Sequence record: ON210137.1
Strand: one strand, 5' to 3'
From: Escherichia phage EC150
DNA: 64,000 nucleotides
Part shown: positions 7,273-23,987 of the stretch, piece by piece
Layout of the letters: each line of letters begins with the position of its first letter
Position numbering within the stretch: position 1 is the stretch's first letter
Position numbers and translations under genes: made by a program
The notes under the pieces: model-generated
What the model was told of the DNA's origin: nothing
The model's input: the letters and a program-made list of their open reading frames with translations, nothing else
The model's database searches: none

Positions 7273-7284
7273 CCAATTTGCACT

Positions 7285-8692: not shown

Positions 8693-8760
8693 TTTAAACT
8701 CCTAGTTGGGAGAGGCGTTAACGACCTATTCGTTAACTCATCCCGTCCCGATATGAGTAC

Positions 8761-8788: not shown

Positions 8789-8832
8789 GCACTTTTTCGA
8801 TAAAAATGCGATAAATTATTTTATCTTTTTCC

Positions 8833-8860
8833 TTTACTTCTTCGTACACTCGCGTATACT
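8833..8860 (+). promoter_or_regulatory. sigma70-like promoter (copy 2 of 3)
   Basis: TTTACT (8833-8838), spacer TCTTCGTACACTCGCG (16 nt), TATACT (8855-8860). Same TTTACTTCTTCGTACACT core as at 9230. Confidence 0.5.
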
Positions 8861-8915
8861 TGTTTATATCGAGACGGGCGATGGCCTTCCTTCTACTAGC
8901 ATCGGGAGTTTTATT

Positions 8916-9218
8916 ATGACTACTTTAATCTCTTCTATCCTTACTTACGACGAAGACCGTTTAACCGTTCGTTCTCTTATCGCCGCCGTTAACGCGGAAC
9001 TAGAATCCACCATCATTAAGGTCCGCGCGGTCGCTTTCGTCGGCCTTTCCTTCGACGATATTAAGTATGCCGAACGTAGCGCCATCCGCTTCGCGAAGAC
9101 CGACGACGAAGCCGTTACCCTTATCGAGACGGTTACGCCGCGCGGCGAAGCGTTAATTATCGTCGAGTATATCGACGTAGAGGGCGATAAGGCTTATAAA
9201 TATTTTATCGCAAAATAA
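8916..9218 (+). CDS. hypothetical small acidic protein
   Basis: 100-aa ORF with GGGAG 8 nt upstream. CpG-rich codon usage like its neighbours. Confidence 0.6.
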   Translation: MTTLISSILTYDEDRLTVRSLIAAVNAELESTIIKVRAVAFVGLSFDDIKYAERSAIRFAKTDDEAVTLIETVTPRGEALIIVEYIDVEGDKAYKYFIAK

Positions 9219-9229
9219 CGAAAAAGTGC

Positions 9230-9258
9230 TTTACTTCTTCGTACACTAAGACTATAAT
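9230..9258 (+). promoter_or_regulatory. sigma70-like promoter (copy 3 of 3)
   Basis: TTTACT (9230-9235), 17-nt spacer, TATAAT (9253-9258). Preceded by CGAAAAAGTGC, as in the minus-strand copy. Confidence 0.55.
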
Positions 9259-9325
9259 GTTTTATATCGAGAGGGGAGAGGAAGCGAATAGGTCGCCTTC
9301 CCGCCCTCCCAACTAGGAGAATATT

Positions 9326-9616
9326 ATGATTACTTTATCCGCTATCCGTTCCGCTCGCGTCGAGACTTCCGAAAACTCTAACGTATTTGGCGAAACCTTA
9401 GAGAGCGTTTATCTCTCTAACGTCGACGCGACTATCGAATCTATTTATGAGCCGATCAACTTCCTCGACCTTTACAAGTATCGCGACGAGGACATCGTAT
9501 CATCCCGCGTAACTATCAACGGCTTCGTCTATACGATTACCGAAATCGGCGGCGAATATATCGCGGTCCCGCAACTCGGCGGCGAAGTAACTTATTTTAA
9601 AATCGTCTCCTTATAA
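9326..9616 (+). CDS. small acidic protein, paralog of 8408..8692
   Basis: 96 aa. Leader carries the CCCAACTAGGAG RBS context and the AATAGGT-loop hairpin (9280-9301), both shared with the 8408..8692 leader. Confidence 0.65.
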   Translation: MITLSAIRSARVETSENSNVFGETLESVYLSNVDATIESIYEPINFLDLYKYRDEDIVSSRVTINGFVYTITEIGGEYIAVPQLGGEVTYFKIVSL

Positions 9617-9635
9617 TACCCTTCCGTTACTAATA

Positions 9636-9662
9636 GGCCGCGCTTAGTCGCGGCTTTTCTTC
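9636..9662 (+). terminator. rho-independent terminator
   Basis: GCCGCG-CTTAGT-CGCGGC (9637-9654) followed by TTTTCTT. Confidence 0.65.
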
Positions 9663-9780
9663 GTCCCTATCCCGATGCGCGTCTACGCGAAAACTCCTTT
9701 ATCCTTCCCTTCGTCGTCGCATAATCTTCTTCGAGATGCTCCTTAGTTCGCATAACAGGTATTACGTTAAATGGAGAACA

Positions 9781-9854
9781 TCGCGTAAGTCCTTGTTTTA
9801 TATAGACACCTATATCGGACCGTTAGGGCGGGTCGCGTAAGTCGTTGTTTTATA
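9781..9854. repeat. 22-bp direct repeat TCGCGTAAGTC(C/G)TTGTTTTATA
   Basis: Copies at 9781-9802 and 9833-9854 (21/22 identical, 52-bp period) in non-coding DNA. Confidence 0.6.
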
Positions 9855-9979
9855 AAGGCGCAAAACTTTCCCTTCGTTCCGAACTAAAACGAGAAATGTG
9901 CCGACCCTTCGCCCGAAAATAGTACGTATGCGAAATTACATGCATCTCGAATAATCCCTCCCGATATTATCCTACACGC

Positions 9980-10042
9980 AATCATTCGCTTTCGAATCAT
10001 TATGCTTCATATTGTTATGCGTCGAATCATTCGCTTTCGAAT
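9980..10042. repeat. 18-bp direct repeat AATCATTCGCTTTCGAAT
   Basis: Exact copies at 9980-9997 and 10025-10042. Each contains the small inverted repeat ATTCG-N4-CGAAT. Confidence 0.6.
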
Positions 10043-10131
10043 TGTAACGCTGGAAACTGTAACGGCGATTGATTATTGCGTTCGTGTGGTTTTTATGGCA
10101 TGGGTCTTTTGGTGCGTTTTGGTACTTGATG

Positions 10132-10245
10132 AAATTTGCAGTACACTAATCAAAATACGACACATTTGGTCCACTAACTTTTCAAAGAAAAAGTCCTAGA
10201 CAGTACCGTACTATTTTGTACCCACAGGAAATTTGCAGTACACTC
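10132..10245. repeat. direct repeat GAAATTTGCAGTACACT
   Basis: Copies near 10131-10147 and 10229-10245. ATTTGCA is shared with the ATTTGCACTAT motif. Confidence 0.5.
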
Positions 10246-10255
10246 CTGCGCGGCA

Positions 10256-10286
10256 GGCAAAACAAAGGGCCGCACTAAGCGACCCA
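10256..10286 (-). terminator. rho-independent terminator for the leftward module
   Basis: Minus strand reads GGGTCGC-TTAGT-GCGGCCC followed by TTTGTTTTG, just downstream of the 10315 stop. Confidence 0.5.
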
Positions 10287-10314
10287 CGATTCACGGTTAA
10301 ATCAGCAACACCCA

Positions 10315-10695
10315 CTATTCGCTCTTATGGGCATCACCAAAGCCATCCGCAATCTGGCTGATCAATGATTCAATGGACACAGTTTTACCAATTGATCGAG
10401 CGGTAATAGCAAGCATATTATCAATCAAACCATGATTGGATGCGTATGGTTCAGGTTTTGAATCATCTTCAGGACAACCAAAAAGCTGGTCGCGCAAACT
10501 TTCGAGAGAACGCTCAACATTTTCCAACTTCTCTTCTAAATCGGATTGGCGACGTAAAACCCATGTCAAGTCACGGTTGCCAACTTCCAATCCATCAGAA
10601 TAGCAAGGTGGAGCGTCAATTTTGTTGCTGGAACCAAAAGCAGTGCCGCTGCCTTTAGTATAAGTATGGCTCATAGAATCATTTTTATTTGACAT
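10315..10695 (-). CDS. hypothetical protein
   Basis: 126-aa ORF. Last gene of the leftward 15388->10315 module. Confidence 0.55.
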   Translation of the reverse strand: MSNKNDSMSHTYTKGSGTAFGSSNKIDAPPCYSDGLEVGNRDLTWVLRRQSDLEEKLENVERSLESLRDQLFGCPEDDSKPEPYASNHGLIDNMLAITARSIGKTVSIESLISQIADGFGDAHKSE

Positions 10696-10769
10696 ATCAT
10701 TACCTTTAATATTTGGTGATTAACAATAACTATAATAAAGCCGCATAGCGCGGCATTCAAATCGATTTA

Positions 10770-11018
10770 TTAATTGTGACGATTGGATTCATCAATCGAT
10801 ACCAATTGTGCAGGGTTGCCGGATACCGTTGCGCCGATGATTCCCATTTGAGAGAAAAATTCTGAATAAACCTCTTTCCAGTACTTGCGCGCTGCTTTCT
10901 GGGCTTGACCTTTGCGCTTATAACTTTTGCCTTGAAAGATGAAGCGGTCTTTTGGAGCGTAATACTCCACCACACCTTCCAGCCATTGTAAGAATGCTAC
11001 TGATTCATTTTTATTCAT
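10770..11018 (-). CDS. hypothetical protein
   Basis: 82-aa ORF. Preferred over the overlapping 72-aa frame at 10757..10975. Confidence 0.55.
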   Translation of the reverse strand: MNKNESVAFLQWLEGVVEYYAPKDRFIFQGKSYKRKGQAQKAARKYWKEVYSEFFSQMGIIGATVSGNPAQLVSIDESNRHN

Positions 11019-11025
11019 GTTAACC

Positions 11026-11421
11026 TCAATATTTTAATAAGAAAGCGCCCAACCAACTTTCCTCAATCTCGCGGCCAGTAGCCACACGGTCGGTCTTTGA
11101 TATGGGTCTGGATTCGCCACAGGGCAACCCGTCCTGTAGTTGTGTACTATTGCCAATCCTCACCAGAACCTTTCCATCAGGGTCGATATAAGCGCGACAA
11201 CCCATGATTTCGAGTCGTTGTAGACACTGGCGAATCGTTTTCAGCTTCTCACCGGACCTGATAGAGCGCGGTCGCGACCGCTGACCGTTCTTATTCACTT
11301 TGCGCTTTGCAACCGGAATATCATTGATGCGCTGCGACTTGGGTCGATAATAGGCTTCTTCGCCAGGAGTTGCACCTGGCGTCAGTTCGCGTTTGAGATC
11401 CTTTTCAATATCGATGATCAT
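11026..11421 (-). CDS. hypothetical basic protein
   Basis: In-frame ATG 11421 (MIIDIEKDL...). The upstream Cys-rich part of the track ORF overlaps a better small ORF in another frame. Confidence 0.5.
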   Translation of the reverse strand: MIIDIEKDLKRELTPGATPGEEAYYRPKSQRINDIPVAKRKVNKNGQRSRPRSIRSGEKLKTIRQCLQRLEIMGCRAYIDPDGKVLVRIGNSTQLQDGLPCGESRPISKTDRVATGREIEESWLGAFLLKY

Positions 11422-11423
11422 GA

Positions 11424-11522
11424 TTATGCCGCTGCAGCGTAAACAATTGCATAAGCAATTCCAAACAGCGCAGCAATACATACCGTGCCCCAAAATGCAA
11501 AGCGTCGTGACTCTTTATCCAT
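11424..11522 (-). CDS. possible 32-aa single-pass membrane peptide
   Basis: MDKESRRFAFWGTVCIAALFGIAYAIVYAAAA. Its ATG directly follows the stop of 11523..11756 (TAAATG). Too short for the ORF track. Confidence 0.35.
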   Translation of the reverse strand: MDKESRRFAFWGTVCIAALFGIAYAIVYAAAA

Positions 11523-11756
11523 TTATTTATCCCCCAACGTCCATGAATTAAACACTAATTTTGCCATTTCATCTTGTGAAACCACATTATAGTGCTTAGG
11601 CAAATCGCTTTCTGATAATACCTTCTGGGCTTCTTCTTTTGTCTCAAAGAGAGGGATGAAAAAGACCAAGCGGTTATCTTCAGGATCAATGCCGCAGATG
11701 ACGTATTTTGGCAATGCTTTTGCTTTTTGAGTCTTATCAATATCTTCAAATTTCAT
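11523..11756 (-). CDS. hypothetical protein
   Basis: In-frame ATG 11756 (MKFEDIDK...) with GAGGTG 4-5 nt upstream. Confidence 0.55.
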   Translation of the reverse strand: MKFEDIDKTQKAKALPKYVICGIDPEDNRLVFFIPLFETKEEAQKVLSESDLPKHYNVVSQDEMAKLVFNSWTLGDK

Positions 11757-11802
11757 AATACACCTCACTTGTTAACGTATAATGAGTATAACTTAATCGA
11801 GC

Positions 11803-11830
11803 ATAAAGTAAAGGCGCTTTTCAGCGCCTT
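11803..11830 (-). terminator. stem-loop / weak terminator after the tail-fibre gene
   Basis: 8-bp stem AAGGCGCT / AGCGCCTT (11811-11830), then TACTTTAT on the minus strand. Confidence 0.45.
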
Positions 11831-11837
11831 GAGTGAA

Positions 11838-14153
11838 TTATTTTGCTGATTTCAGCACGGCTATCTCTGCCTTGAGTTCATCAATCTGATCCATCAATGC
11901 GAGAATAGCCTCGTGGTGCAATGCCGCTGCAACGCCGTAAGTGTCAACTGACTTGATATCTTCGACAACAGTCCCATCCTTGAGTTCCGTGTTTGAATAT
12001 TTCAAAGTTTTTACTGCGTCAGGAAATACACCTTCTACATCTTGAGCTATAAATCCGATGCCATTCGGTTTCTCTGACTTATCAAGGCGCTCCCAAGTCA
12101 CACCCTTGATCAATCTCATCTTTCCTAACGGGTCGGAAATCCTTTGAATATTTGTTTTGACCCTCTCATCAGACGTGCTGACCCAGTTCCCTGCAGTAGC
12201 AGTACCATCAGGCATAAATTTGAAATCTGCTGCAGCGCCTTGCCCATTGTTTATGGATATTTGCGCGTGCATCAAATCAGTTCCAGTACCTCGAACGCCT
12301 CCGAATGTATAGCTGCCAGCATACCAATCCCCTGAAAAATATGATACATACCCAGGCGTTGACTGGTTGAAGTTTATCATCCTCATACCGTTGCTTTCAT
12401 ACGCTGAAACGCCTACTGAATTCAACGGTTGCACAACAAGGTCTTTTGGTCTGAGATATGCATTAACATTCAGCGCCCCGTCTGTCCTTTCCGTACTAAT
12501 TTGATTTATGGAGTTAGGGAAATAAAATGTGCCATCTTGCGCAAACTTCCATTCTTGCACCCCATTAGATATCACAGCACCTTGTTCAGACGTTAATCCA
12601 TCAATCTTACCGTATGCTTGCAAGAATGCTTGATACGCAATGTTGGTGCCAATTTTATATTCAGATTTTACACTGCCGCCACTGACAAGCGTTCCGGTTG
12701 CAGGTTTTACTGCGTCACCATTAATAACGCTCCAAGTCGTATTCGCAGCAGCAAATCCACCCGATGCACGAATCACCCAAACGCCTACAAAGTTACGACC
12801 CATTATTTCACTGTTTGAACGGCCATAAACCGGACTTACTCGCGAAGCATCAAAACTCACCCTAATAACACCATTACCAGTTACCGGTTCTGGTGACAAT
12901 GGTGTTTCTACCTGACCCGGTACAATAGCACCCGTCTGCCCGTAGGCGACGACGCCACCAATATCCCCGTAAATGTTTGGTGCAGCTGAATCAAACACAA
13001 CACCATCAGCGTTGGAGTTTGCGGTGCCATTTCCTGCGCCGTCACCTCGTCCATAAAGAGCGGCTAATGAACCGACTTGAACGCCGTTTTTGTCGGGCAC
13101 ACGGAAAGTCGTTGAGCCATTACCAAGAGAATACTTTCCGCGCTTTGTTGGGTCCGCAAGCCAATCCGCATCAGCAATAGGAGTCAGCATTTGAGCATAT
13201 GCCCAAAGCTCAGGCCAGTCTGCGCGGTTAAGCAATTGCCCGTCTGCAACAACTTCATATGGCTGGATGTAAGCACGGCTATCACGAAGATGAAAATCAC
13301 CAACACCATAGTTCATTACACCGTTCATGTTCGGTCCAACGGTGCCAGTGTTGATAAGGTTTTCAACCCAACGTTTAGTCGCAGCATCATAATCATTCAC
13401 AGGGTCACCAGCAAGCGGAGTTGGGCCTGTCGGTCGAATATTCAACCAAGCCTGCGCATTATCCCCTGATCCTGTGCCGCCCATGGAAGTGGGCACGATA
13501 TTTTGATCAGCGACTTGTCCGAATCCAAAAGCAGACTTCATGCCCTGAATAGTACTCTGCCCTGTGCCACCGTTTGCCACTGGTACTACATCAAGTTCGC
13601 TATAAACCTTTTTCCAAGGTGACCAAAAGTCGCCATTAAATACCCTGTTGTATTCAGGGCCAACCGTTGCTGTGTATTTTTGTGAACAAGCATTTGCTGA
13701 AATTTGGATTACTTCCAATACTCCAGACGATAAGGTTGGGTAGTTCAAAGCAGGTGATGCTGATAGACTGTTCGGCTGGTAATATTGGCCAAACCATGAA
13801 CCAGTCAAAGCATTGAGATTTATTCCGTTAGGAATCTCTCCAAAGTTTCGGACAGTACCCGTCAAAGTCGCAGCAGTAGTTCGAATGGAAAGCATGTCGC
13901 CAGCCGCCCATGCACGCGCTGCAGTTCCTTCCTGTGCACGCTGCACGGTCAGGACGTTTCCAACAACGGCTGTTACTGTGACGATTTCGAATTGGAGGCC
14001 TGTCGCAGCGTCTACGATTGTCGCCACTACACGCTCGTTTGCAGCCAAGGTCGGAAATCCCGACCCTGAGCGAATTGTGATTGTGGTGTCTGAAGTCGTC
14101 GTTGGCTGAGCGAGCGCGACCTCAAAGTTGTTTTTGAATATTAGCCTTGGCAT
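11838..14153 (-). CDS. tail fibre/spike protein with C-terminal intramolecular chaperone (peptidase S74-like) domain
   Basis: 771 aa, Gly/Ser/Thr/Asn-rich body. The C-terminus ...SDERVKTNI..L.KGVTWERLD...GIGFIAQDVEGVFPDAV...coiled coil is the signature of endosialidase-type auto-cleaving chaperone domains. Confidence 0.85.
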   Translation of the reverse strand: MPRLIFKNNFEVALAQPTTTSDTTITIRSGSGFPTLAANERVVATIVDAATGLQFEIVTVTAVVGNVLTVQRAQEGTAARAWAAGDMLSIRTTAATLTGTVRNFGEIPNGINLNALTGSWFGQYYQPNSLSASPALNYPTLSSGVLEVIQISANACSQKYTATVGPEYNRVFNGDFWSPWKKVYSELDVVPVANGGTGQSTIQGMKSAFGFGQVADQNIVPTSMGGTGSGDNAQAWLNIRPTGPTPLAGDPVNDYDAATKRWVENLINTGTVGPNMNGVMNYGVGDFHLRDSRAYIQPYEVVADGQLLNRADWPELWAYAQMLTPIADADWLADPTKRGKYSLGNGSTTFRVPDKNGVQVGSLAALYGRGDGAGNGTANSNADGVVFDSAAPNIYGDIGGVVAYGQTGAIVPGQVETPLSPEPVTGNGVIRVSFDASRVSPVYGRSNSEIMGRNFVGVWVIRASGGFAAANTTWSVINGDAVKPATGTLVSGGSVKSEYKIGTNIAYQAFLQAYGKIDGLTSEQGAVISNGVQEWKFAQDGTFYFPNSINQISTERTDGALNVNAYLRPKDLVVQPLNSVGVSAYESNGMRMINFNQSTPGYVSYFSGDWYAGSYTFGGVRGTGTDLMHAQISINNGQGAAADFKFMPDGTATAGNWVSTSDERVKTNIQRISDPLGKMRLIKGVTWERLDKSEKPNGIGFIAQDVEGVFPDAVKTLKYSNTELKDGTVVEDIKSVDTYGVAAALHHEAILALMDQIDELKAEIAVLKSAK

Positions 14154-14191
14154 TTTACGGTCCTCGTTTTGTCGACAACCGTATTATAACC

Positions 14192-14533
14192 TTAATTTCT
14201 TTTGAGAGGAATATGGCGGTTGCTGTCATTATTTGGTTTAATAATGAGCATAAAAACGATTAGAAAGATGATGGCTGATATACTTAATTCAATCAGCGCG
14301 GCTTGAGATATAGATTGATCTTCATGATACTGCTTTTGCATTTCTGCTTTCTTCTGAGCGCAAACTTCAGGTGATATGTAATCGCCTTTTGAGTTGCCAT
14401 AATAAATCTCGCCATTCTCAGAAATAAGCCTGCCGCAAATATCCGTGTCAGCCTTTGCGCTTGACATCATAATAACGGTGCCGATGATAGCGGCAATTGT
14501 CCAGATTAGCAGTTGTGATAAGGTATTATTCAT
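14192..14533 (-). CDS. membrane protein (N- and C-terminal TM segments)
   Basis: 113 aa. Hydrophobic LLIWTIAAIIGTVIMM at the N-terminus and AIIFLIVFMLII near the C-terminus. AAGAGG RBS. Confidence 0.55.
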   Translation of the reverse strand: MNNTLSQLLIWTIAAIIGTVIMMSSAKADTDICGRLISENGEIYYGNSKGDYISPEVCAQKKAEMQKQYHEDQSISQAALIELSISAIIFLIVFMLIIKPNNDSNRHIPLKRN

Positions 14534-14576
14534 GATAACCTCTTTAATTCCCTTCCCATATCGGGAAGGGTGAATA

Positions 14577-14732
14577 TTATTTTACGCGAAAGAATAGGCG
14601 CGTGCCACACAGCGAGTCCCAACGGCCCTCACCATCCCATATCGACCCAACACCAGCGGTGATTGGGCCAGCAGAATTGGCGGCATTGGCCCAGGCTAGA
14701 CGTTTCAACTTCCAACTGCACCAACGATTCAC
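14577..14732 (-). CDS. possible 51-aa Trp/Cys-rich peptide (GTG start)
   Basis: GTG 14732 overlaps the upstream stop (ATGTGA). Reads (M)NRWCSWKLKRLAWANAANSAGPITAGVGSIWDGEGRWDSLCGTRLFFRVK. It fills an otherwise empty 195-bp gap. Speculative. Confidence 0.2.
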   Translation of the reverse strand: MNRWCSWKLKRLAWANAANSAGPITAGVGSIWDGEGRWDSLCGTRLFFRVK

Positions 14733-14962
14733 ATTTCATCTCCAGATTGCAAAACAAGTCCCGCATAGATGATTGCTAAAGCTAAAGGCGCACCACTTCC
14801 CGCCTCTCTGTTCTCTTTAATCTGAAGAGCATCCTTAAGGAATTGCAACTGAACGTTGAATTCATTTTCAATTCCAAGCACTCCAGACAATCCTTTTACA
14901 GAATCTGCATATGCCTTGTCTAGCACTTCTTTTGGTACTGTTAAAGTCAATTCATTTGCCAT
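14729..14962 (-). CDS. hypothetical protein
   Basis: In-frame ATG 14962 (MANELTLTV...) overlapping the end of the upstream gene by 11 nt. Confidence 0.5.
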   Translation of the reverse strand: MANELTLTVPKEVLDKAYADSVKGLSGVLGIENEFNVQLQFLKDALQIKENREAGSGAPLALAIIYAGLVLQSGDEM

Positions 14963-15173
14963 TTTCTTTCCACTCCACGAATGTACTGCCACTTGTTTCT
15001 CTATTTAGCAGGTATCTGCCGCGCATTCCATGAAGGCTGAACTCAACCGTCGATGGATTAGATTTTGAAAGCCACATCACTTGACCGTCGAATGGTCCGC
15101 CGATGCATGTGTATTTGGCCTTTGGCTCACTCCTTTTGGGTCGCTTTGCCCGCTCTTTGATTGATAGTCTCAT
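14952..15173 (-). CDS. hypothetical basic protein
   Basis: 73-aa ORF whose start overlaps the upstream stop. Confidence 0.5.
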   Translation of the reverse strand: MRLSIKERAKRPKRSEPKAKYTCIGGPFDGQVMWLSKSNPSTVEFSLHGMRGRYLLNRETSGSTFVEWKENGK

Positions 15174-15388
15174 CAGTCTTCACCTTGAGATTCAAGACAA
15201 GTAAGGACAAGCCACGTCATCGGAAGAATCAAAACCAGAGAAATAAGTGACCAAATGGACCAACACAAGATGACAGACTTGAATGTGTGAACGTCGCCAA
15301 ACGTAGCAGTGAAACAAAATCCCATTACGAAAGCAATCGCTGTGGAGTGATTATCAATGGCTTTGATGGCGCGGTCGATGAGTTTCAT
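15173..15388 (-). CDS. small membrane protein (2 TM segments; holin-like topology)
   Basis: 71 aa. TM segments are AIAFVMGFCFTATF and ILCWSIWSLISLVLILPMTWLVL. GGAGG RBS. First gene after promoter 15415-15442. Confidence 0.55.
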   Translation of the reverse strand: MKLIDRAIKAIDNHSTAIAFVMGFCFTATFGDVHTFKSVILCWSIWSLISLVLILPMTWLVLTCLESQGED

Positions 15389-15414
15389 ATTACCTCCGGT
15401 TTTGAGTTAATATG

Positions 15415-15442
15415 ATTATAATGCAGAATTTCAGAAAGGCAA
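15415..15442 (-). promoter_or_regulatory. sigma70-like promoter for the leftward module
   Basis: Minus strand: TTGCCT (15442-15437), 16-nt spacer, TATAAT (15420-15415). Confidence 0.5.
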
Positions 15443-15462
15443 ACTTTTTGTGAATTTAAATT

Positions 15463-15525
15463 AAAAAAATGGCCAGAAATAATCTGGCCAAAAAGATCAC
15501 CCTTTATCCACTACTAAGCTGGAAT
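15463..15525 (-). ncRNA. candidate ~60-nt small RNA or terminated leader
   Basis: On the minus strand, promoter 15558-15530 is followed about 35 nt later by an 8-bp hairpin TGGCCAGA/TCTGGCCA (15490-15470) and a run of 7 T (15469-15463). There is no ATG-initiated ORF. A second promoter follows. Confidence 0.3.
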
Positions 15526-15529
15526 CATA

Positions 15530-15558
15530 ATTTTACTTGATATAGCTGTCTCAAGCAA
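15530..15558 (-). promoter_or_regulatory. sigma70-like promoter (leftward)
   Basis: Minus strand: TTGCTT (15558-15553), 17-nt spacer, TAAAAT (15535-15530). It overlaps the rightward promoter back-to-back. Confidence 0.45.
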
Positions 15559-15566
15559 ACTATAAT
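15537..15566 (+). promoter_or_regulatory. sigma70-like promoter for terL
   Basis: TTGATA (15537-15542), 18-nt spacer, TATAAT (15561-15566). The -10 abuts ATG 15567, which argues that the real terL start is ATG 15600. Confidence 0.45.
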
Positions 15567-17027
15567 ATGAATAAAATATTAACACATAATTGGAAAGTCA
15601 TGTACCAGTTGAATCCTGCTTTAAGAGAAGTCTGGAAGACGAAAGCGCGATACAAAGTCATATACGGCGGTCGTGCATCTTCCAAATCGCACGATGCCGC
15701 TGGTTTTGCTATTTATTTGGCGGCAAACTTCAAATTAAAATTCCTTTGCGTTCGACAATTCCAGAACAAGATTTCTGAATCAGTATATACGCTATTAAAA
15801 GACAAAATAGAAATTTCTGATTTCAAAGACGAGTTCAACTTATTAAAGAACTCTATTGAACACAAAAGAACAAAATCTGAATTCTTATTTTACGGTATCG
15901 CACGCAACGTTGATGAAATCAAATCAACAGAAGGCGTTGATGTTCTTTGGCTTGAAGAAGCGCATGCGCTGACTGAAGAGCAGTGGGACATCATTGAGCC
16001 GACAATTCGTAAGGAAGGGTCCGAAATATGGATCATATTTAACCCTGATGAAGAGGCTGATTTTGTCTACCAGAACTTTGTCATGCGACCGCCGAAGAAT
16101 GCCATCGTTAAGAAGATTAACTGGCAAGACAACCCATTCTTGTCGCAAACAATGCTGGATGTTATCGCTGGCATGTATGAGCGCGACCCGAAAAAGGCAG
16201 AACACGTTTATGGCGGAGTACCGAAGACTGGCGGCGACAAGTCGGTAATCAACCGTGCATTCGTCAAGGCCGCGCTAAACCTCCACAAACACCCTACGCT
16301 GGGATGGAGCTTGTCAGGGTCTAACCGTATAGGCTTTGACGTGGCGGACGACGGCGACGACTTAAACGCCACAGCATTTGTCACTGGCAACGTATTGCGC
16401 GGCATCAAGACATGGGAAGGTCTGGAGGATGAATTGCTTAAGTCCGCAAGCGGAGTCTGGAAAGACGCATTGACATTCGGCGCATCAATCACCTATGACG
16501 CCATCGGTGTTGGTGCATTTGCTGGTTCAAAATTTGATGAGCTTAATGAGTGTGCAATCCATGAAAATCCAACATTCCCAAGAATCGAATTTAATGCGTT
16601 CAACGCGCAAGGTGCTGTTGATGATCCTGATGACGTTTTCCTTGAGTTACCACACGTTGAAATACTCAATAAAGACCATTTCGCAAACATAAAAGCGCAA
16701 AAATGGACTGAGATTGCCGAACGATTCAGAAAGACATATGAGTATGCGACAGGGCAAGCCGTATATCCGACCGATGAGTTGATTTCCATCGACACAGACG
16801 GCATCCCAGAACTTGGTATTCCCGCTTGGTCTGCGGAAGAGATTGAGACGTTTCTTTTTGAGATGTCAGCGCCGCGCAAAGATACGTCTGTTCTTGGTAA
16901 GTTCAAAGTTGAATCGAAAAAAGATATGGCAAAGCGTGGAGTCAAATCGCCTAACAAAGCGGACGCAGCAATCATGGCATTGATGAAACCAATTGTTGCA
17001 GCATCCGGCTTCTTCTCTAACCTTTAA
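15567..17027 (+). CDS. terL: terminase large subunit
   Basis: 486-codon ORF. Walker A-like GGRASSKS, then LWLEEA (Walker B-like), then a C-terminal nuclease-type region with acidic motifs. Resembles PBSX/headful-type TerL. The true start is probably ATG 15600 (GGAAAG RBS). Confidence 0.9.
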   Translation: MNKILTHNWKVMYQLNPALREVWKTKARYKVIYGGRASSKSHDAAGFAIYLAANFKLKFLCVRQFQNKISESVYTLLKDKIEISDFKDEFNLLKNSIEHKRTKSEFLFYGIARNVDEIKSTEGVDVLWLEEAHALTEEQWDIIEPTIRKEGSEIWIIFNPDEEADFVYQNFVMRPPKNAIVKKINWQDNPFLSQTMLDVIAGMYERDPKKAEHVYGGVPKTGGDKSVINRAFVKAALNLHKHPTLGWSLSGSNRIGFDVADDGDDLNATAFVTGNVLRGIKTWEGLEDELLKSASGVWKDALTFGASITYDAIGVGAFAGSKFDELNECAIHENPTFPRIEFNAFNAQGAVDDPDDVFLELPHVEILNKDHFANIKAQKWTEIAERFRKTYEYATGQAVYPTDELISIDTDGIPELGIPAWSAEEIETFLFEMSAPRKDTSVLGKFKVESKKDMAKRGVKSPNKADAAIMALMKPIVAASGFFSNL

Positions 17028-17030
17028 CAA

Positions 17031-17270
17031 TTAAATCATTCCGTGCTGAAGGTCGAGCTTTCTTGCGGCAAACGACCTGGCACGGAATCGCTTACCCGCC
17101 CTTACTGCCTGTCGAATTTTCTTTTGCAAACACTTACGGTCAAAATCGTTGCGGTCGACGGCTTCGAGTAAATCGCGACGCAGTGCACCCAGTGTCGACT
17201 TTTCGGAGACTTCAACGCCCAGCGCGGCTGCAACATCTTTCAAAACATCGAGTTCGGTTAAAGTTCTCAT
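17031..17270 (-). CDS. hypothetical protein (N-terminal SAP/HeH-like helix pair, basic C-terminus)
   Basis: 79-aa ORF on the opposite strand between terL and portal. LTELDVLKDVAAALGV resembles SAP/Rho-N motifs. Confidence 0.5.
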   Translation of the reverse strand: MRTLTELDVLKDVAAALGVEVSEKSTLGALRRDLLEAVDRNDFDRKCLQKKIRQAVRAGKRFRARSFAARKLDLQHGMI

Positions 17271-17683
17271 TTGATAATCCCCTTGATGTCTGATTCTGCC
17301 ATAAAGATTGGAGTGCCGCCGCCAGGAACAATAGAGCGCGTGACCTTGTCAAACATATCGTTTTCTTCAACTTGAATACGATAAAATTTATTTTTGGATG
17401 AAGATGGGCACAATCCCATAAATTTTCCGATGCCGCGAACGCATTCATCTTCAAAGTATACTGTTTCACCTTGAATGGAGTCGATGTCGTCTACTGGATA
17501 GACCTTGCGACCCAATAGCCACTCATCCAAAGTCGCCTGCAAGACGTTGCGCGCATCTAAAATCCACGGGTCAATAGTAGCACCTTCATATCGCGCAGCA
17601 GTGGCCTTTGCCAGTTCTTCATATTCGCATACGTTAACGACTTCGCCGTTGTGCAAGACGACAAATACAATTGTTGTGCTCAT
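17267..17683 (-). CDS. hypothetical protein
   Basis: 138-aa ORF with AGGAG RBS. Overlaps the downstream gene by 4 nt. Confidence 0.55.
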   Translation of the reverse strand: MSTTIVFVVLHNGEVVNVCEYEELAKATAARYEGATIDPWILDARNVLQATLDEWLLGRKVYPVDDIDSIQGETVYFEDECVRGIGKFMGLCPSSSKNKFYRIQVEENDMFDKVTRSIVPGGGTPIFMAESDIKGIIK

Positions 17684-17778
17684 TTCAATCTCCTTTCGTT
17701 TGGTTAACTAAAATATAACTCAAAATGATACAAAAGCAAAATATTTTATGAACTATTTATGATCACCATACATATCAT

Positions 17779-17807
17779 TTGCTTACAAACACATGAATAT
17801 TTATAAT
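17779..17807 (+). promoter_or_regulatory. sigma70-like promoter for the portal operon
   Basis: TTGCTT (17779-17784), 17-nt spacer, TATAAT (17802-17807). Confidence 0.5.
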
Positions 17808-17845
17808 ATAGATTGATTCCCTTTCACTGTCAGGTGGCGTTAACA

Positions 17846-20221
17846 ATGAAAATTCTTGGCATAAAACTCTGGGAGAAGACGCAACCAGAAGCCGAACCAG
17901 CGGAGATGCCGCCAGGCGACCCATTGGCACCGTTTGAACGCCTTGAAAGGCGCGGCAGCGGTCAACGCTGGGAAAAGACTGAAAGCAATCGACCGACCTT
18001 TAAAACGGTTGATGACTTCCCTTTATATGAGCCTGATATTAATGGCGATGGTGTTGCAATCATAAAAGGTCGTTCAGTCGATTCCGCAACAGTATCCAAA
18101 AAGGTTATGGATAATGCCTTAAAGAACATCAGTTCAGAAGGGCAAGTCAACCCATACACAGTACCTATTCAACTTCAAAACTGGTATTTGTCACAGTCAT
18201 TCATCGGCTATCAAGCTTGTGCCATCATCGCACAGCATTGGCTGGTGAACAAGGCATGTTCCATGGTAGGCCGCGATGCGGTCCGTAAAGGTTGGGAAGT
18301 CAAATCCAGTTCTGAGTCAGAATTGTCAGTACAGGCAAGCGAACGCCTAAAGCAAATTGATAAAGAATTTAATATCAAAGAGCACTTAGTTGAAGCCGAA
18401 CGATTCAAAAATATTTTTGGTATCCGCGTCATCATATTTGATGTGCGTAGTGATGACCCAGAATATTACAGCAAGCCTTTTAACATTGATGGTGTGACAA
18501 AGGGGTCTTATAAGGGAATCATTCAGGTTGACCCTTATTGGATGATGCCGTTTCTGACGTCTGAAAACACAGCAGACCCTGCATCACAGCACTTCTATGA
18601 CCCAGAATATTGGGTAATCAGCGGACAACGTTATCATCGCAGCCACCTCATAATCTTGCGCAACGATGAGCCAGCTGATATTCTCAAGCCGACTTATATT
18701 TACGGCGGCATTCCTCTGACTCAGCAGATTTATGAACGCATCTATGCCGCTGAACGTACCGCCAACGAAGCGCCATTGCTGGCGATGTCCAAGCGTACAA
18801 CGACGCTGCGGACCGACGTTGACAAGGCTATTGCCAATGAGCGGTCTTTTGCAGAACGTCTGATGATGTGGATCAAGTACCGCGACAACTATGCAGTCAA
18901 AGTGCTTGGCCAAAAAGAAGAGATGGACCAGTTTGACATCAACTTGTCAGACTTCGACAGCATCATCATGAACCAGTACCAGCTTGTGGCCGCAATCGCA
19001 AAAGTTCCGTCGACCAAACTGCTTGGGACTTCGCCAAAAGGCTTTAACGCCACTGGTGAATTCGAGATGGTCAGCTATCACGAAGAGTTGGAAACGTGCC
19101 AGCAGCATGACCTGACAAAAATTCTCGACCGCCATTACAAAATCCTTCTCAAATCAGAAGGGGTGGATGTCGATGTTAAGGTTGCATGGGAACCAGTTGG
19201 CTCACTTACTGCTACTCAACTTGCAGAAATCAATGATAAGCGAGCCAACACTGGCAAAACTCTTATTGATGCTGGCGTCATTTCTCCTGATGAAGAGCGC
19301 GACCGCATCAAAGACGACAAAAACAGCGGCTACAACCGTCTGCCGGAAGACGCAGCAGAAGAAACCCCAGGGATGTCTCCAGAGAATATGGCATTGCTTG
19401 GCAAGTCTGCTGGTGAAGTCCTGCAAGGTAAGGCCGATATTGAACAGGCGAAAGCTGATGTCGTTAAGATGGGCGGCCAGTTCTATAGCGAAACAGGTAT
19501 TATGCCAGAGGGTGCCGCGCGCGGTGAGTTGGCGGAAAACCCTGACAAAGCGCCTGTCGAAATCAACATGGACGATACCGATGATGAATCGAGCCATCAC
19601 ATTGATGTCCTAACGCAGTTGAAAGAAGGGCTGGAGGGTATTGCGGATTACTACCTGAAAGAAGGTCAGGATGTGGATTTTGACCCTCAAAAAGATTCAC
19701 GGTCGGTGCAACCGTCTACCCTTCCAAGCGTTAAAGGACACGTAGTCAACTTACGCCACAACGTGGGTAAAATGGACGCAGCATCATTACCTAAGATGAA
19801 GTTGCACGGAATGATTCTTGGCATTGAGAATCCGCGAAACAGCATTCGTAGAGGAAACAGCATTGACGGTGAATGGGCCGTGAAGATGCCGCACCACTAC
19901 GGATTCATCAAGGGCACCAAGGGCGCAGACGGTGATGAAGTCGACTGCTTTGTGGGTCCAAATCTGAAGTCGCCGAAAGTCTTTATTGTGAACCAAAACG
20001 ATAACTACTCTGGCGAGTTTGATGAACACAAGTGTATGCTTGGATTCGATTCAGCAGAAGAAGCGAAAGAAGCTTATCAAGCATCATTTGGTAACGGTTG
20101 GAACGGCTTCGACTCAATCCACGAATTAGATGTGAACTCATTCAAGGAGTGGTTGAAGGGTGATTGCTCTCAAGCATACGGAGCACTCAATAATCCTACT
20201 AATTCACCGAAGCAAGGTTGA
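17846..20221 (+). CDS. portal protein with a C-terminal extra domain
   Basis: In-frame ATG 17846 after AGGTGG. Size and position (after terL) fit a portal, and the body resembles DUF1073-type portals by recall. The C-terminal ~150 aa (..YGFIKGTKGADGDEVDCFVG..FDEHKCMLGF..) is an add-on domain. Confidence 0.85.
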   Translation: MKILGIKLWEKTQPEAEPAEMPPGDPLAPFERLERRGSGQRWEKTESNRPTFKTVDDFPLYEPDINGDGVAIIKGRSVDSATVSKKVMDNALKNISSEGQVNPYTVPIQLQNWYLSQSFIGYQACAIIAQHWLVNKACSMVGRDAVRKGWEVKSSSESELSVQASERLKQIDKEFNIKEHLVEAERFKNIFGIRVIIFDVRSDDPEYYSKPFNIDGVTKGSYKGIIQVDPYWMMPFLTSENTADPASQHFYDPEYWVISGQRYHRSHLIILRNDEPADILKPTYIYGGIPLTQQIYERIYAAERTANEAPLLAMSKRTTTLRTDVDKAIANERSFAERLMMWIKYRDNYAVKVLGQKEEMDQFDINLSDFDSIIMNQYQLVAAIAKVPSTKLLGTSPKGFNATGEFEMVSYHEELETCQQHDLTKILDRHYKILLKSEGVDVDVKVAWEPVGSLTATQLAEINDKRANTGKTLIDAGVISPDEERDRIKDDKNSGYNRLPEDAAEETPGMSPENMALLGKSAGEVLQGKADIEQAKADVVKMGGQFYSETGIMPEGAARGELAENPDKAPVEINMDDTDDESSHHIDVLTQLKEGLEGIADYYLKEGQDVDFDPQKDSRSVQPSTLPSVKGHVVNLRHNVGKMDAASLPKMKLHGMILGIENPRNSIRRGNSIDGEWAVKMPHHYGFIKGTKGADGDEVDCFVGPNLKSPKVFIVNQNDNYSGEFDEHKCMLGFDSAEEAKEAYQASFGNGWNGFDSIHELDVNSFKEWLKGDCSQAYGALNNPTNSPKQG

Positions 20222-20222
20222 T

Positions 20223-21074
20223 ATGGCTTTTAAAGCTTCGAAAAAACGTGAACGCCGCTCACCCGATAGAGTCGGGCGCGGCAGTCCGATAATCCCATCC
20301 AACGCTATTGCGATGGCCTATCGTCGTGAGATGAAAGGTCTTTGCTATGCGATGATTGACGACTATCAAGCAGGAATTGCTGAGTGGCTTGAAAAGAAGC
20401 AGGTTAAAAAGTTCTTTGCGCAAGACTCTGCTGATTCAACTTTTCAGACCTTGATGAAGCGACTGCAACTGAAATGGGCAAAAGCTTTCGCCCGTGTCGG
20501 GTCAAAGATTGCCGCAGATTTCATCAAGTCAGTTGAAAAGGGCGCCACTTCTGCTACATTTGCAAGTCTTAAATCTGCAGGAATAGAAGCGCCAAAAGCC
20601 ACATATAATAAATTCGTTGAGAACACTCTTAAAACAAGCGAGACGTTCAACACGACTTTAGTGACTAAGGTTGGCGAAGATATTCACAACAGGGTGTACG
20701 AAGCGGTGATGCTTTCGCTGACTTCGCCAGACCCAGCACAACAAGGCACGTCAGGCATTCAGGCGGCATTGCGAAACGTAAAACACTTCTCTGCAAAGAG
20801 AGTCGACTTGATCGCTAAAGACCAGACAAGCAAGTTGTATTGCGTTCTAAGCGATGAAAGGATGCGCCAGAATGGAGTCGAAGAATTTGAGTGGGCGCAC
20901 TCAGGAGCAGGAAAGGAGCCGCGAATCTCTCATGAACACGTCGACGGAATGAGATTCAAACTTGATGACAAGCGCCTATGGGAAGTTGGCGGCGAATTGA
21001 AGTTCAAAAAGGGTGACATCGGTCCTCCTGGATGGGCAATACACTGCAAGTGCAGAAAAATACCAATCATTTGA
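20223..21074 (+). CDS. minor head / head-morphogenesis protein (Mu F / SPP1 gp7-like)
   Basis: In-frame ATG 20223, 1 nt after the portal stop. C-terminal ...HSGAGKEPRISHEHVDGMRF...GPPGWAIHCKCR is typical of the family. Confidence 0.75.
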   Translation: MAFKASKKRERRSPDRVGRGSPIIPSNAIAMAYRREMKGLCYAMIDDYQAGIAEWLEKKQVKKFFAQDSADSTFQTLMKRLQLKWAKAFARVGSKIAADFIKSVEKGATSATFASLKSAGIEAPKATYNKFVENTLKTSETFNTTLVTKVGEDIHNRVYEAVMLSLTSPDPAQQGTSGIQAALRNVKHFSAKRVDLIAKDQTSKLYCVLSDERMRQNGVEEFEWAHSGAGKEPRISHEHVDGMRFKLDDKRLWEVGGELKFKKGDIGPPGWAIHCKCRKIPII

Positions 21075-21081
21075 GGTCATT

Positions 21082-22002
21082 ATGACGATACCAATCAGCA
21101 CGTTTCCTCTATCTGGACAAACGCCAGTATTGCCTGCTGTATATGCTAACGGTTTGGCGATTGTTTCAGAATTTACATCCGATAAAAACCTGATTGTTCC
21201 ATTGAGTCCGCCATTGGCATCTGGATACAATTCAGTTGGTCAATTCTTTATGATCGGTAATGATGGCGATTCTACCAGCAAGCCGAATCTGACACTTTCA
21301 GTTCCCAAAATGAACATAACAGACGTGCAGACTGGTTTAACTGCATCTACAATCACCATCGCTTTTGGAGAAGCAGTGATTATAGGCATGGAGTCTGGAG
21401 GGTCCAAGAATGCTGTCGCCGTTAAGGTAGTCAAATCCAGCGGCAACCAATACACGTTACCAGCGGCAACGGCTTCTGTTCTCGGCGGCGTCAAGATAGG
21501 AAGTGGCATAAGTGTTGCAGGTGACGGTACAATTAGTGTTACTCAATACTCGTTACCGATTGCATCAGCATCAACCTTGGGTGGCGTAAAAGTAGGAACG
21601 ACACTATCAATTGATGGTTCTGGAGTTCTTAATGCTGCTGCAAGCAATGTGCAAAACACAAGCAATAGTGTAAGCAATCCTCCGACAACTCTGGTGAATC
21701 TGGCAACATTAAACCTGCCTGCAGGGAAATGGCTTGTGACAGCAAGTCAGTTGACTGTCGCAACAGAAGGAGTTCAAGCGAATACCGGAATTACAGTAAA
21801 ATTGTCAACAAGTAATTCAGATATTACGGATGATGCATTCACGATGTCTGCTGGCATTCGGGCTGCAGGTCGTTTCGGCGGCAATATTCCAACAAAGATA
21901 ATTACTCTTGCCGCGCCTGGCAACGTGTATCTAAACTATCAATGCACAGACGCATTGACATCTACCGTTTACGGACAGATCACCGCAATTAAGTTGAACT
22001 AA
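21082..22002 (+). CDS. fibre-like virion protein (possible head fibre)
   Basis: In-frame ATG 21082. Tandem ~32-aa repeats Y(T/S)LP.A.AS.LGGVK(I/V)G......G.G.. (nt ~21448-21633), then a Ser/Thr/Asn/Ala-rich C-terminus. Lies inside the head-gene block. Confidence 0.6.
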   Translation: MTIPISTFPLSGQTPVLPAVYANGLAIVSEFTSDKNLIVPLSPPLASGYNSVGQFFMIGNDGDSTSKPNLTLSVPKMNITDVQTGLTASTITIAFGEAVIIGMESGGSKNAVAVKVVKSSGNQYTLPAATASVLGGVKIGSGISVAGDGTISVTQYSLPIASASTLGGVKVGTTLSIDGSGVLNAAASNVQNTSNSVSNPPTTLVNLATLNLPAGKWLVTASQLTVATEGVQANTGITVKLSTSNSDITDDAFTMSAGIRAAGRFGGNIPTKIITLAAPGNVYLNYQCTDALTSTVYGQITAIKLN

Positions 22003-22012
22003 AGAGGAAGTT

Positions 22013-22150
22013 ATGCAAAAGATTATGCAGTCACGTTACGTTAAAGTGCGAAATATTAATTGCAACTCTTTGCTTTCTTGGAAATGGGCTGTTTACGACT
22101 CGATGCTGATTGGCGTTTTAGTTGCTGGAGTGCTTTTTAATATTCACTGA
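22013..22150 (+). CDS. possible 45-aa membrane peptide
   Basis: MQKIMQSRYVKVRNINCNSLLSWKWAVYDSMLIGVLVAGVLFNIH. AGAGGAAG RBS 5 nt upstream. Below the ORF-track size cut-off. Confidence 0.35.
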   Translation: MQKIMQSRYVKVRNINCNSLLSWKWAVYDSMLIGVLVAGVLFNIH

Positions 22151-22189
22151 ATCGCCTGGCAATGGATTGCCGCAGGATTTCACGCGTAT

Positions 22190-22460
22190 AATGACGTATC
22201 ATCCGTATCAAGTAAGTAGTTGTTTTCAAAAGAATCTTACGGATGATACGGATGATACGCGTTGCCGCGATACTTTATAGGAATTCAAATAAATTAATTT
22301 AAAATTATATATCTAATTTAATTTTATTTTTTTATAAACTCTTATATATGAAAAGTATCCGTATCATCCGTATCATCCGTAGCACACCAGTGATAGCGCG
22401 GCTTATACACCGATACGGATAAAAATACGCCTCATTTTATCCGTATCATCCGTATCACAC
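22190..22460. repeat. iteron-like GGATGATACG arrays in opposed orientation around an AT-rich core (module B)
   Basis: CGTATC at 22195, 22204, 22360, 22369, 22442, 22451. GATACG at 22245, 22254, 22412. Inverted repeat CTTACGGATGATACGGATGATACG (22236-22259) / CGTATCATCCGTATCATCCGTAG (22360-22382). AATCTTACGGATGATACGG is identical to 6373-6390. Confidence 0.7.
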
Positions 22461-22516
22461 TAATTAAGGCGCGCGGCTATATCGGTTGTTATACATATTC
22501 AAACCATAATTATTGT

Positions 22517-22545
22517 TTGCCTAAGTTTTTTTCATTAGATATAAT
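22517..22545 (+). promoter_or_regulatory. sigma70-like promoter for the head operon
   Basis: TTGCCT (22517-22522), 17-nt spacer, TATAAT (22540-22545). Confidence 0.55.
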
Positions 22546-22574
22546 ACACAATACTTATTTGAGGGTGGATGCGA

Positions 22575-23987
22575 ATGCAAACGGCACGCGAAATTGACAA
22601 AAATGGATTCTTGACGATTGTGGGTTGTCCCATTTCGTCATTTGGCATTTTTGATTATTCTGCAGGTCAGGTTGGACTTGATGGTGATCCGAATCGCATC
22701 GTAAAAGTTTATCGCCCAGAGTCAGCGGTGAAAGACCCCGAAGCGATAGATTCATTCAAAAATATCCCTTTCATCGACAATCACGAAATGCTTTCTGGAT
22801 TCGAAGGTGATGAGGATAACACAGCACCCGAAGAGTATGGCGTTGATGGCGTTCTAACTGGCAATGTTTATTATGACAAGCCATGGATGCGCGGCGACCT
22901 TAAAGTTTTTAGCCGTCGTCTGAAGAAAGCCATCGATTCTGGAAAGGTTGACTTGTCTTTGGGCTATGACTGTGAATTCATCATACAGTCTGGAGAGTTT
23001 GACGGGCAGCCGTATGAAGTGGTACAGACAACTCTTCGCGGCAACCACATTGCTCTCGTGGACGTTGGTCGAGTACCAGGTGCACGGGTGCTGGATGGTC
23101 GTTGCTTTGACCATCTTTGTTTGACGACTGTAACACCATCCAACGAGGATTTAGACATGCCAAAACCGTTAAAAGGTAAAGCGCGTGATAATGCTGTTGA
23201 ACAGCTGAAGTCGCTGATCCCTGCGCTCGAACAATTTCTGAATGAAGAGAGCACCGAAGCTGCTCATCAGGACGAAGTTGAAGTGAAAGCAGAAGAGAAG
23301 GATTCAACCGAAGAACGTGAAGAAGTGATGGTTGATCCAGAAGTCAAAGCAGAAGCTGAAGAGACTCCAGAAGGTGAAGAGAAGTTTGAAGTTGAAACTG
23401 AATCTCACGCTGGCGGCGAGCTTCCGCAACTGATCAGCCAAATCGAAGCACTTATTGCAAAACTGAAAGGTGGCGCGGTAGGTGATGAAGAAGAAGTTGA
23501 AGCCGAAGTCAAAGACGAAGAAGTTGAAGTCAAGGCTGAAGATGTATCACCTTGCGACAAAGCTGAAGATGTGGTTAGCGGCCTGCAAAACAGCAACGTA
23601 AAGGGGGCTTCGGTCGAAAAAGATGACAAACCGACAAAAGCGGCGAAAGCGTCGCCAGGTCCAGCAAAAGGGGAACACTCAATGGCATCTGATTCAGCAG
23701 TTGCTGCTTTCTACGCTGATTCTGCTCGTAAGAATAGCCTCTACCAGCGCCTGTCTAAAGTTGTTGGTGCCTTTGATCATGCAACTATGGACTCCAAGTC
23801 CGTAGCGAAATATGGCGCTAAAAAGTTAGGCTTGAAGTGCGTTGATGGTGCTGAGTTTGACGTGGTGGATAATTATCTGCGCGGCGTTGAACACGGTCAA
23901 AAACAGCGTGTAGTCGCAAAACAAAAGGCTGCTGCGGATTCTGCAGCAACTGACGAAGCGTTTGAAGCTTGGTTGAAAGGGGAATAA
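22575..23987 (+). CDS. putative prohead protease/scaffold protein (DUF2213-like N-terminus, acidic E/K/V-rich centre)
   Basis: ATG 22575 is preferred over 22569 on RBS spacing (GAGG at 22561). The N-terminal ~190 aa recall the DUF2213 phage family. Central EEVEVKAE repeats are scaffold-like. Lies upstream of the capsid gene. Confidence 0.6.
   Translation: MQTAREIDKNGFLTIVGCPISSFGIFDYSAGQVGLDGDPNRIVKVYRPESAVKDPEAIDSFKNIPFIDNHEMLSGFEGDEDNTAPEEYGVDGVLTGNVYYDKPWMRGDLKVFSRRLKKAIDSGKVDLSLGYDCEFIIQSGEFDGQPYEVVQTTLRGNHIALVDVGRVPGARVLDGRCFDHLCLTTVTPSNEDLDMPKPLKGKARDNAVEQLKSLIPALEQFLNEESTEAAHQDEVEVKAEEKDSTEEREEVMVDPEVKAEAEETPEGEEKFEVETESHAGGELPQLISQIEALIAKLKGGAVGDEEEVEAEVKDEEVEVKAEDVSPCDKAEDVVSGLQNSNVKGASVEKDDKPTKAAKASPGPAKGEHSMASDSAVAAFYADSARKNSLYQRLSKVVGAFDHATMDSKSVAKYGAKKLGLKCVDGAEFDVVDNYLRGVEHGQKQRVVAKQKAAADSAATDEAFEAWLKGE

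Follow-up and report, generated by a model that had tools for sequence, protein, structure and literature searches.

The closest described counterparts of the element considered here are the replication origins of the SaPI satellites, in which 6-12 short iterons lie immediately downstream of rep around an AT-rich centre, with at least two opposed iterons per side (PMC9371898). The SaPI Rep protein reads these iterons with its winged helix, and two hexamers are probably loaded so that they flank the AT region (PMC9371898). An element of comparable layout occurs twice in a 64,000-nucleotide stretch of the genome of Escherichia phage EC150 (ON210137.1; hereafter the window): module B, at 22185-22465, and its paralogue module A, at 6205-6660, neither of which is assigned to a strand. 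Between 21000 and 24000, the window is 99.6% identical to Escherichia phage FEC19 and matches 28 Wifcevirus records; the phage belongs to this genus of PB1-like E. coli myophages. Wifcevirus comprises myophages of E. coli and Shigella with genomes of 66-72 kb that are distant kin of the PB1-like Pseudomonas phages (Pbunavirus; bioRxiv 10.1101/2024.09.12.612763). The genome, that of a virulent myophage, measures about 68 kb, of which about 4 kb lie outside the window. Architecture and homology are the basis of all functions proposed below, and genome ends are taken from published records and PhageTerm annotations.

A literature search found no paper assigning an origin in Wifcevirus or Pbunavirus phages. 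For Pbunavirus, the origin question has been approached through GC skew alone (PMC12390725), and intergenic motifs have been termed "function unclear" (PMC3008698). In the window, GC skew tracks gene strand alone and gives no origin signal at 22.3 kb. It is proposed here that modules A and B may be paired paralogous Rep-type iteron replication origins, a proposal that we consider about equally likely to be right or wrong. Dual origins were one of three readings offered in the original prediction and are favoured among them because the layout is SaPI-like, a Rep homologue is encoded, and module A lies directly downstream of rep in most related lineages; the missing GC-skew signal and the distance of about 26 kb between module B and rep weigh on the other side.

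Module B is built from a 9-mer, ATCCGTATC, arranged head to tail with a period of 9 bp. From left to right, it comprises an outer left pair of iterons on the plus strand (ACGTATC and ATCCGTATC; 22192-22210), an inner left array of about 2.5 units of GATACGGAT on the minus strand (22238-22259), an AT-rich core (22270-22356, with 90% A+T over 22275-22356) that is the proposed site of DNA melting, an inner right array on the plus strand (ATCCGTATC twice, then ATCCGTAGC; 22357-22383), and a group of outer right iterons (22412-22457) made up of GATACGGAT on the minus strand (22412-22420) and two copies of ATCCGTATC on the plus strand (22439-22456). The inner arrays carry the arms of a perfect 22-nt inverted repeat (22238-22259 and 22360-22381), which stand 100 nt apart and whose outer ends are separated by 144 bp. 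This agrees with the inverted repeat around an AT-rich core described in the original prediction, which had also correctly placed CGTATC at 22195, 22204, 22360, 22369, 22442, and 22451 and GATACG at 22245, 22254, and 22412. Folding of module B as single-stranded DNA gives a strong hairpin (z = -7.3) that restates the inverted repeat. At least two iterons flank the AT-rich centre on each side in opposite orientation, and the same layout is present in five other lineages. In addition, the pentamer GCCGC lies left of the core on the plus strand at 22264-22268, with a second copy at 22169-22173, and GCGGC lies right of it on the same strand at 22398-22402 (+88 from the core centre), with a second copy at 22473-22477.

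Module A repeats this plan around an AT core at 6397-6502, with iteron cores at 6212, 6242, 6310, 6328, and 6384 on the left and at 6504, 6546, 6555, 6565, and 6643 on the right, GCCGC at 6258 and 6351, and GCGGC at 6541, 6587, and 6615. The two modules align over about 200 nt (E = 1.5e-11), which bears out the claim that they are homologous and share one architecture. The 19-mer earlier said to be common to both is likewise identical; it stands at 22233 in module B and at 6372, rather than 6373, in module A, and the identity in fact extends over 21 nt. All nine exact copies of ATCCGTATC in the window fall inside the modules (seven in B and two in A; binomial P = 4e-18), and the iteron words of the modules come first in an unbiased scan for clusters of 7-mers. 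No other 100-nt windows in the stretch are as AT-rich as the cores of A and B (0.85 against a mean of 0.54). A search for further copies found no third module in the window or in the roughly 4 kb of genome outside it, and an Rfam scan of 5900-23000 matched no family.

All 28 Wifcevirus records have module B in the same place, 93-99% identical, and no empty site occurs among these genomes. In an alignment of seven Wifcevirus genomes, positions 22276-22580 hardly vary and the core does not differ at any base. The left flank (22150-22190) of WFC, Eco4M-7, and TH32, the three divergent genomes compared, shows 16-17 differences per 100 nt, and the genes neighbouring the module show 0-24. In Bas101, exactly one 9-nt unit is missing from the inner left iteron array. 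The invariance of module B next to a variable flank is consistent with purifying selection, which is not proven since Wifcevirus genomes are mosaic. Terminal inverted repeats around an AT-rich spacer, present in two copies per genome, could also be read as a MITE-like mobile element or a recent functionless duplication, as in the earlier suggestion of a small duplicated or mobile inverted-repeat element. The comparative data refute this reading and leave it next to no probability, given that module B is carried by 28 of 28 Wifcevirus records with no empty site, that both positions of the pair are syntenic across at least six genus-level lineages in which the sequence has diverged and the repeats are lineage-specific, that each genome holds only two copies, that no target-site duplication was seen, and that the sequence is strongly conserved.

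The A/B pair is not confined to Wifcevirus. Kylevirus, Myosmarvirus, Pbunavirus, and two metagenomic lineages carry it too, with one module in the intergenic space upstream of terS and the other in that upstream of the head protease gene, as in Wifcevirus. The repeat is peculiar to each lineage and common to its own A and B: GGAATAACC with a period of 9 bp in Pantoea phage Kyle, TACTTTTCG with a period of about 8 bp in Serratia phages MyoSmar and MTx, GGGAATTT / GGTAATTT with a period of 8 bp in the Pbunavirus "steven", and TATCCGAT and TTGCGG in the first and second IMG/VR lineages, respectively. When the 10-mers shared by module A of one genome and module B of another are counted in a 6 x 6 matrix, the diagonal holds 8-31 and the off-diagonal cells average 1.2 with a maximum of 6; one of the 720 permutations of the matrix reaches the diagonal sum. 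Many more lineages, BcepF1 among them, have a B-like element ahead of the protease gene, built from still different repeats; Xanthomonas phage XcP1 and distant 40-48-kb phages lack one.

Since the repeats differ among phages of E. coli, Pantoea, and Serratia, whose hosts are all Enterobacterales, sequence comparison indicates that the protein binding the iterons must be phage-encoded, to the exclusion of a host protein. An array of host DnaA boxes was considered and rejected, as the motif changes completely between the E. coli, Pantoea, and Serratia phages. TTATCCGTA also differs at two key positions from the DnaA box consensus, TTATCCACA. Unlike the iterons, which are particular to each lineage, the polar pentamers are group-wide, with GCCGC left of the core and GCGGC right of it. 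Across eight modules from four genera, 43 copies are so oriented and 4 are opposite, with an expectation of about 0.5-0.8 per side, and the first right-side GCGGC falls at +57 to +108 in all eight modules and at +84 to +108 in seven of them. These pentamers may be priming or loading signals for the RepB'-type primase described below.

A candidate for the iteron-binding protein is encoded in the same genomes. A VapE-like Rep helicase gene (gp076 in WFH) lies just past the end of the window, where it would start at approximately 64254, about 1.3 kb downstream of the gene for a RepB'-type primase (61863-62945, plus strand; Pfam PF16793, E = 4e-36) that adjoins rep. WFH gp076 belongs to PF05272 and matches the sequence of PDB 7PDS, the SaPI1 Rep1-DNA complex (E = 4e-11). 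In the AlphaFold2 model of the Wifcevirus VapE-like protein (mean pLDDT 86.9), residues 436-504 form a C-terminal winged helix, and the model's best match in Foldseek is again 7PDS (E = 1.4e-16), aligned over 480 columns and so over nearly the whole chain; the next-best match is at about 1e-6, which puts 7PDS ten orders of magnitude ahead of the other SF3 helicases. The genome is thus predicted to encode a Rep-type SF3 helicase with a C-terminal winged-helix domain. The protein is full-length in the Wifcevirus, Kylevirus, Myosmarvirus, and Pbunavirus genomes examined, and the 3' end of its gene is also present in six metagenomic lineages. Comparison of the genera shows a conserved helicase core and high divergence in the C-terminal 110 residues. 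A comparison of the recognition helix with the iteron across eight lineages gave no clean rule, the helices of Wifcevirus and Pbunavirus being similar and their iterons different.

The position of rep relative to the modules was also compared. In Pbunavirus, Myosmarvirus, and the six metagenomic lineages, rep ends a few hundred bp upstream of module A, giving the gene order rep, module A, terS. In Wifcevirus and Kylevirus, genes are inserted between rep and module A, and the Wifcevirus gap is about 7.7 kb. Module B is never directly downstream of rep and in Wifcevirus lies about 26 kb away, rightward round the unit genome.

Several further features of the replication module were observed. The VapE-like Reps (WFH gp076 and its homologues) all end in an acidic tail with a terminal Phe (DEF, EAF, DGF, EDF, ERF, GGF, ESF, or EGF). 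These tails recall those at the C-termini of T7 gp4, T7 gp2.5, and SSB, which recruit replisome partners. A single CCGTATC stands 18 nt upstream of the rep start codon in WFH (position 58086 of its record) and could be either an autoregulatory site or a chance occurrence. A replication-module gene on the minus strand at 59193-60038 contains clustered short in-frame repeats (AAGAAGC, AGCGTGA, and similar); the same repeat-bearing gene is conserved in Kyle (55478-55967) and MyoSmar (15059-15461).

From these components, a mechanism can be proposed. The VapE-like protein, as a self-loading SF3 helicase, would recognise the lineage-specific 8-9-bp iterons through its C-terminal winged helix, and one hexamer would assemble on each of the oppositely oriented iteron arrays. 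The AT-rich core of about 90 bp between the arrays would then melt, and two outward forks would start bidirectional replication, primed by the phage RepB'-type primase, with the strand-polar GCCGC on the left and GCGGC on the right perhaps marking priming or loading sites. At both modules, Rep would bind the iterons and the core would melt, and either module would fire as an origin. Several observations count against the origin reading. SaPI origins abut rep, which module B does not and, in Wifcevirus, even module A does not; likeness of recognition helices between lineages does not cleanly follow likeness of iterons; the base-for-base identity of the module B core in seven genomes is more constraint than a mere unwinding element needs; and, with a genome end in module A and terS next to it, a terminase-related binder fits module A equally well.

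The last of these observations concerns the physical ends of the DNA. Terminal repeats of about 3.7 kb have been published for WFH and WFC (PMC6563267). Base 1 of the WFH record and base 1 of Mansfield, the latter assigned by PhageTerm, align to the same nucleotide, window position 6440 (PMC6563267, PMC6753283), and the last base of the terminal repeat of both phages aligns to 10109. By homology to WFH and Mansfield, the direct terminal repeat of the window thus occupies 6440-10109 on the plus strand, and the physical left end falls between 6439 and 6440, in the middle of the module A core. The left-end context, AACTCC followed by ATTTT with the end between them, is invariant in five genomes; the right boundary lies between GGGTCTTT and TGGTG. 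In Kyle, MTx, and MyoSmar, the genome end is likewise inside or beside the module A core, and in these three phages as in WFH and Mansfield, it lies about 55-70 bp left of the right iteron array, as read off the sequences. The right boundary at 10109 has no 9-mer iterons, so that the iterons do not simply mark both ends. Records with terminal repeats and PhageTerm annotations place ends only at the equivalents of 6440 and 10109 and none at module B; a virion DNA end inside the element, as at a terminase site, is therefore found for module A and not for module B. The synthetic vB_Eco4M-7 paper makes no statement on genome ends.

Two observations on the sequences around this terminal repeat may be added. 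The left arm of WFH module A is nearly identical, over about 47 nt, to the left arm of module B (window 22233-22280), and the WFH sequence further upstream is unrelated to the flank of module A in the window. Judged by sequence, this identity suggests either continuing sequence exchange between A and B, by recombination or gene conversion, or a common constraint. Around the right boundary at 10109, the non-coding DNA is crowded with three pairs of direct repeats (25, 29, and 17 nt) at 9781-9857, 9992-10050, and 10131-10244.

In some pac sites, the cut is flanked on both sides by short repeats, and synapsis has reportedly been proposed for the pac sites in genes 16 and 19 of T4. The iterons could accordingly be bound by the small terminase TerS, module A being the site of packaging initiation and cleavage and module B a paralogous, uncut second site that would serve synapsis with A or titrate or regulate the terminase. 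The terS gene (6799-7272, plus strand) is directly downstream of module A and is identified by its match to E217 TerS (PDB 7UXE, E = 1.3e-32) and by the Mansfield annotation. The left end inside the core of A at the same nucleotide in WFH and Mansfield, its place inside or beside the core in Kyle, MTx, and MyoSmar, and its steady distance of about 55-70 bp from the right array in all five would be expected of such a site. TerS diverges between genera to 30-42% identity and could therefore co-vary with the repeats; in an alignment of TerS across genera, no region is conserved or variable enough to decide on repeat reading. However, module B is not an end according to PhageTerm or to records with terminal repeats, despite its likeness to A, and a second cleavable site would give defective genomes in a phage with fixed ends. 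One-directional packaging needs neither mirror symmetry nor a meltable core, and the Pbunaviruses, which are reported headful packagers (PMC12390725), keep both modules. In vitro, no appreciable binding of DNA was seen with the homologous small terminase of phage E217, in an assay whose DNA is not specified here (PMC9611059). Finally, both boundaries of the terminal repeat are marked by a different, strictly oriented repeat that module B does not have. Taken together, terminase binding is an unlikely explanation of the pair, though far from a negligible one.

The oriented repeat in question, ATTTGCASTA, has 10 copies in the window, all on the plus strand, against an expected 0.36. Eight of them fall within 1.5 kb of the left end, inside the repeat (6776-7980), and two just past the right boundary (10134 and 10231), and module B contains none. 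ATTTGCASTA may signal packaging or the terminus, or it may act as a promoter element in the terminal-repeat region. A G-rich tract of GTGG-type repeats (GC skew +0.36 to +0.65) is also present 250-450 bp left of module A in five of six lineages and not at module B, and C-rich, CCAC-type sequence is found right of module A in most lineages. In the window, these tracts occupy 6130-6200 and 6650-6680, and GGTCCGTGGTG (6137-6147) pairs with CACCACGGTCC (6664-6674). The outer signals of module A, that is, the G- and C-rich tracts and the ATTTGCASTA array, may be the true packaging signals, and their absence from module B may be the reason that B is not an end.

Under the origin reading, module A would have an additional role or consequence: its core is where the left end of the terminal repeat forms, and the opening or firing of the origin would be coupled to terminus formation and repeat duplication. 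In its most specific form, this idea holds that Rep opens module A in the concatemer and that the opened or fired origin drives the left-end cut and duplication of the 3.7-kb repeat, with module B spared for want of the G-/C-rich tracts and the oriented ATTTGCAC array. Such a double function is put forward tentatively and is on balance improbable. If true, it would supply a concrete mechanism for generating long direct terminal repeats; the coincidence of the repeat start with the centre of an origin-like module gives a testable way into the question of how such long repeats come to be duplicated in the course of packaging.

The modules also stand in front of promoters, and a shared regulator-binding enhancer for late or structural promoters was the remaining possibility raised in the original prediction. 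A sigma70-like promoter (TTGCCT, 17 nt, TATAAT; plus strand) was found, as predicted, downstream of module B at 22517-22545, leading into the operon for head protease, scaffold, and major capsid protein with its ATG at 22569 or 22575. Downstream of module B, and of module A where this was examined, there are sigma70-like promoters. Four of the five genomes examined (Wifcevirus, Kyle, MyoSmar, and MTx) have near-consensus sites, and the one after Pbunavirus module B has a weaker -35 hexamer. A phage-encoded regulator acting on the repeats could activate, repress, or insulate P-terS after A and P-head after B and so co-ordinate the packaging and head genes. The last iteron of module B lies 52-60 bp upstream of the -35 hexamer in three genera, as read off the sequences, an earlier annotation of phage JG024 lists part of the Pbunavirus B core as a putative promoter (PMC3008698), and the base-for-base conservation of the core fits sequence-specific reading. 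In module A, however, the distance from repeats to promoter varies from about 70 to 240 bp, and other late operons (terL and portal) have promoters without such modules. Known operators are far smaller than a mirror-symmetric array of 280-450 bp around a 90-bp AT core, and transcriptional control leaves unexplained both the genome end inside A and the position of A next to rep. A control region of this kind is quite unlikely to account for the pair.

For the preferred reading, paired Rep-type origins, the consequences would be practical as well as mechanistic. Paired origins would explain replication specificity and a possible incompatibility between co-infecting relatives, and a defined Rep-type origin pair with lineage-specific iterons would aid the engineering and rebooting of phages, in a group that includes the Pbunavirus phages widely used in therapy. 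For vB_Eco4M-7, assembly in vitro followed by rebooting has been published (PMC11074155).

Among known packaging sites, P1 pac and the pacL-pacC-pacR site of SPP1 resemble module A in that the cut is made centrally between two arrays of short repeats with the small terminase gene adjoining. They differ in being single and terminase-bound, without a homologous internal second element, whereas the present genome has module B, which is not an end. In T7, phiOL and phiOR are secondary origins near the genome ends that are implicated in concatemer processing, alongside an internal primary origin. They are similar to module A as origin-like elements beside a terminal repeat, but each consists of a promoter and an AT-rich stretch for the phage RNA polymerase, without iterons, and the T7 repeat is 160 bp compared with 3.7 kb here.

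Pairs of related cis sites are also known from replication systems. In satellite P4, ori and crr are distant cis sites with the same short repeats, both bound by the alpha primase-helicase (SF3-type) through its C-terminal DNA-binding domain. As in the present genome, there are two distant sites with common short repeats; in P4, however, the second site is auxiliary, lies about 4.5 kb off, and is not a full mirror-symmetric copy, and neither site is a genome end. Bacillus phage SPP1 has two homologous origin-like sites, oriL and oriR, bound by G38P, with repeats beside an AT-rich region, one site next to the initiator gene and its partner at a distance, among late genes, which parallels the placement of A and B. 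The initiator of SPP1 is of another family, its repeats are laid out differently, and its packaging site is elsewhere.

The SaPI origins share the most with the modules described here: opposed iterons, at least two per side, around an AT-rich centre; an origin directly downstream of rep, as module A is in most lineages; an SF3 helicase ending in a C-terminal winged helix, the domain that sets iteron specificity in SaPI; and a separate primase gene beside rep. They differ in their iterons, which are 5-6 bp in SaPI and 8-9 bp and in tandem here, and in number, since here there are two origin-like modules per genome, with B far from rep amid structural genes. They also differ in setting, a satellite as opposed to a 68-kb virulent myophage in which one module contains the physical genome end and Rep binding is predicted. 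Iteron origins that serve a self-loading SF3 helicase are already known as a kind of element, and what is new is the paired arrangement at two conserved positions in a virulent myophage family, with one copy coinciding with the start of the terminal repeat.
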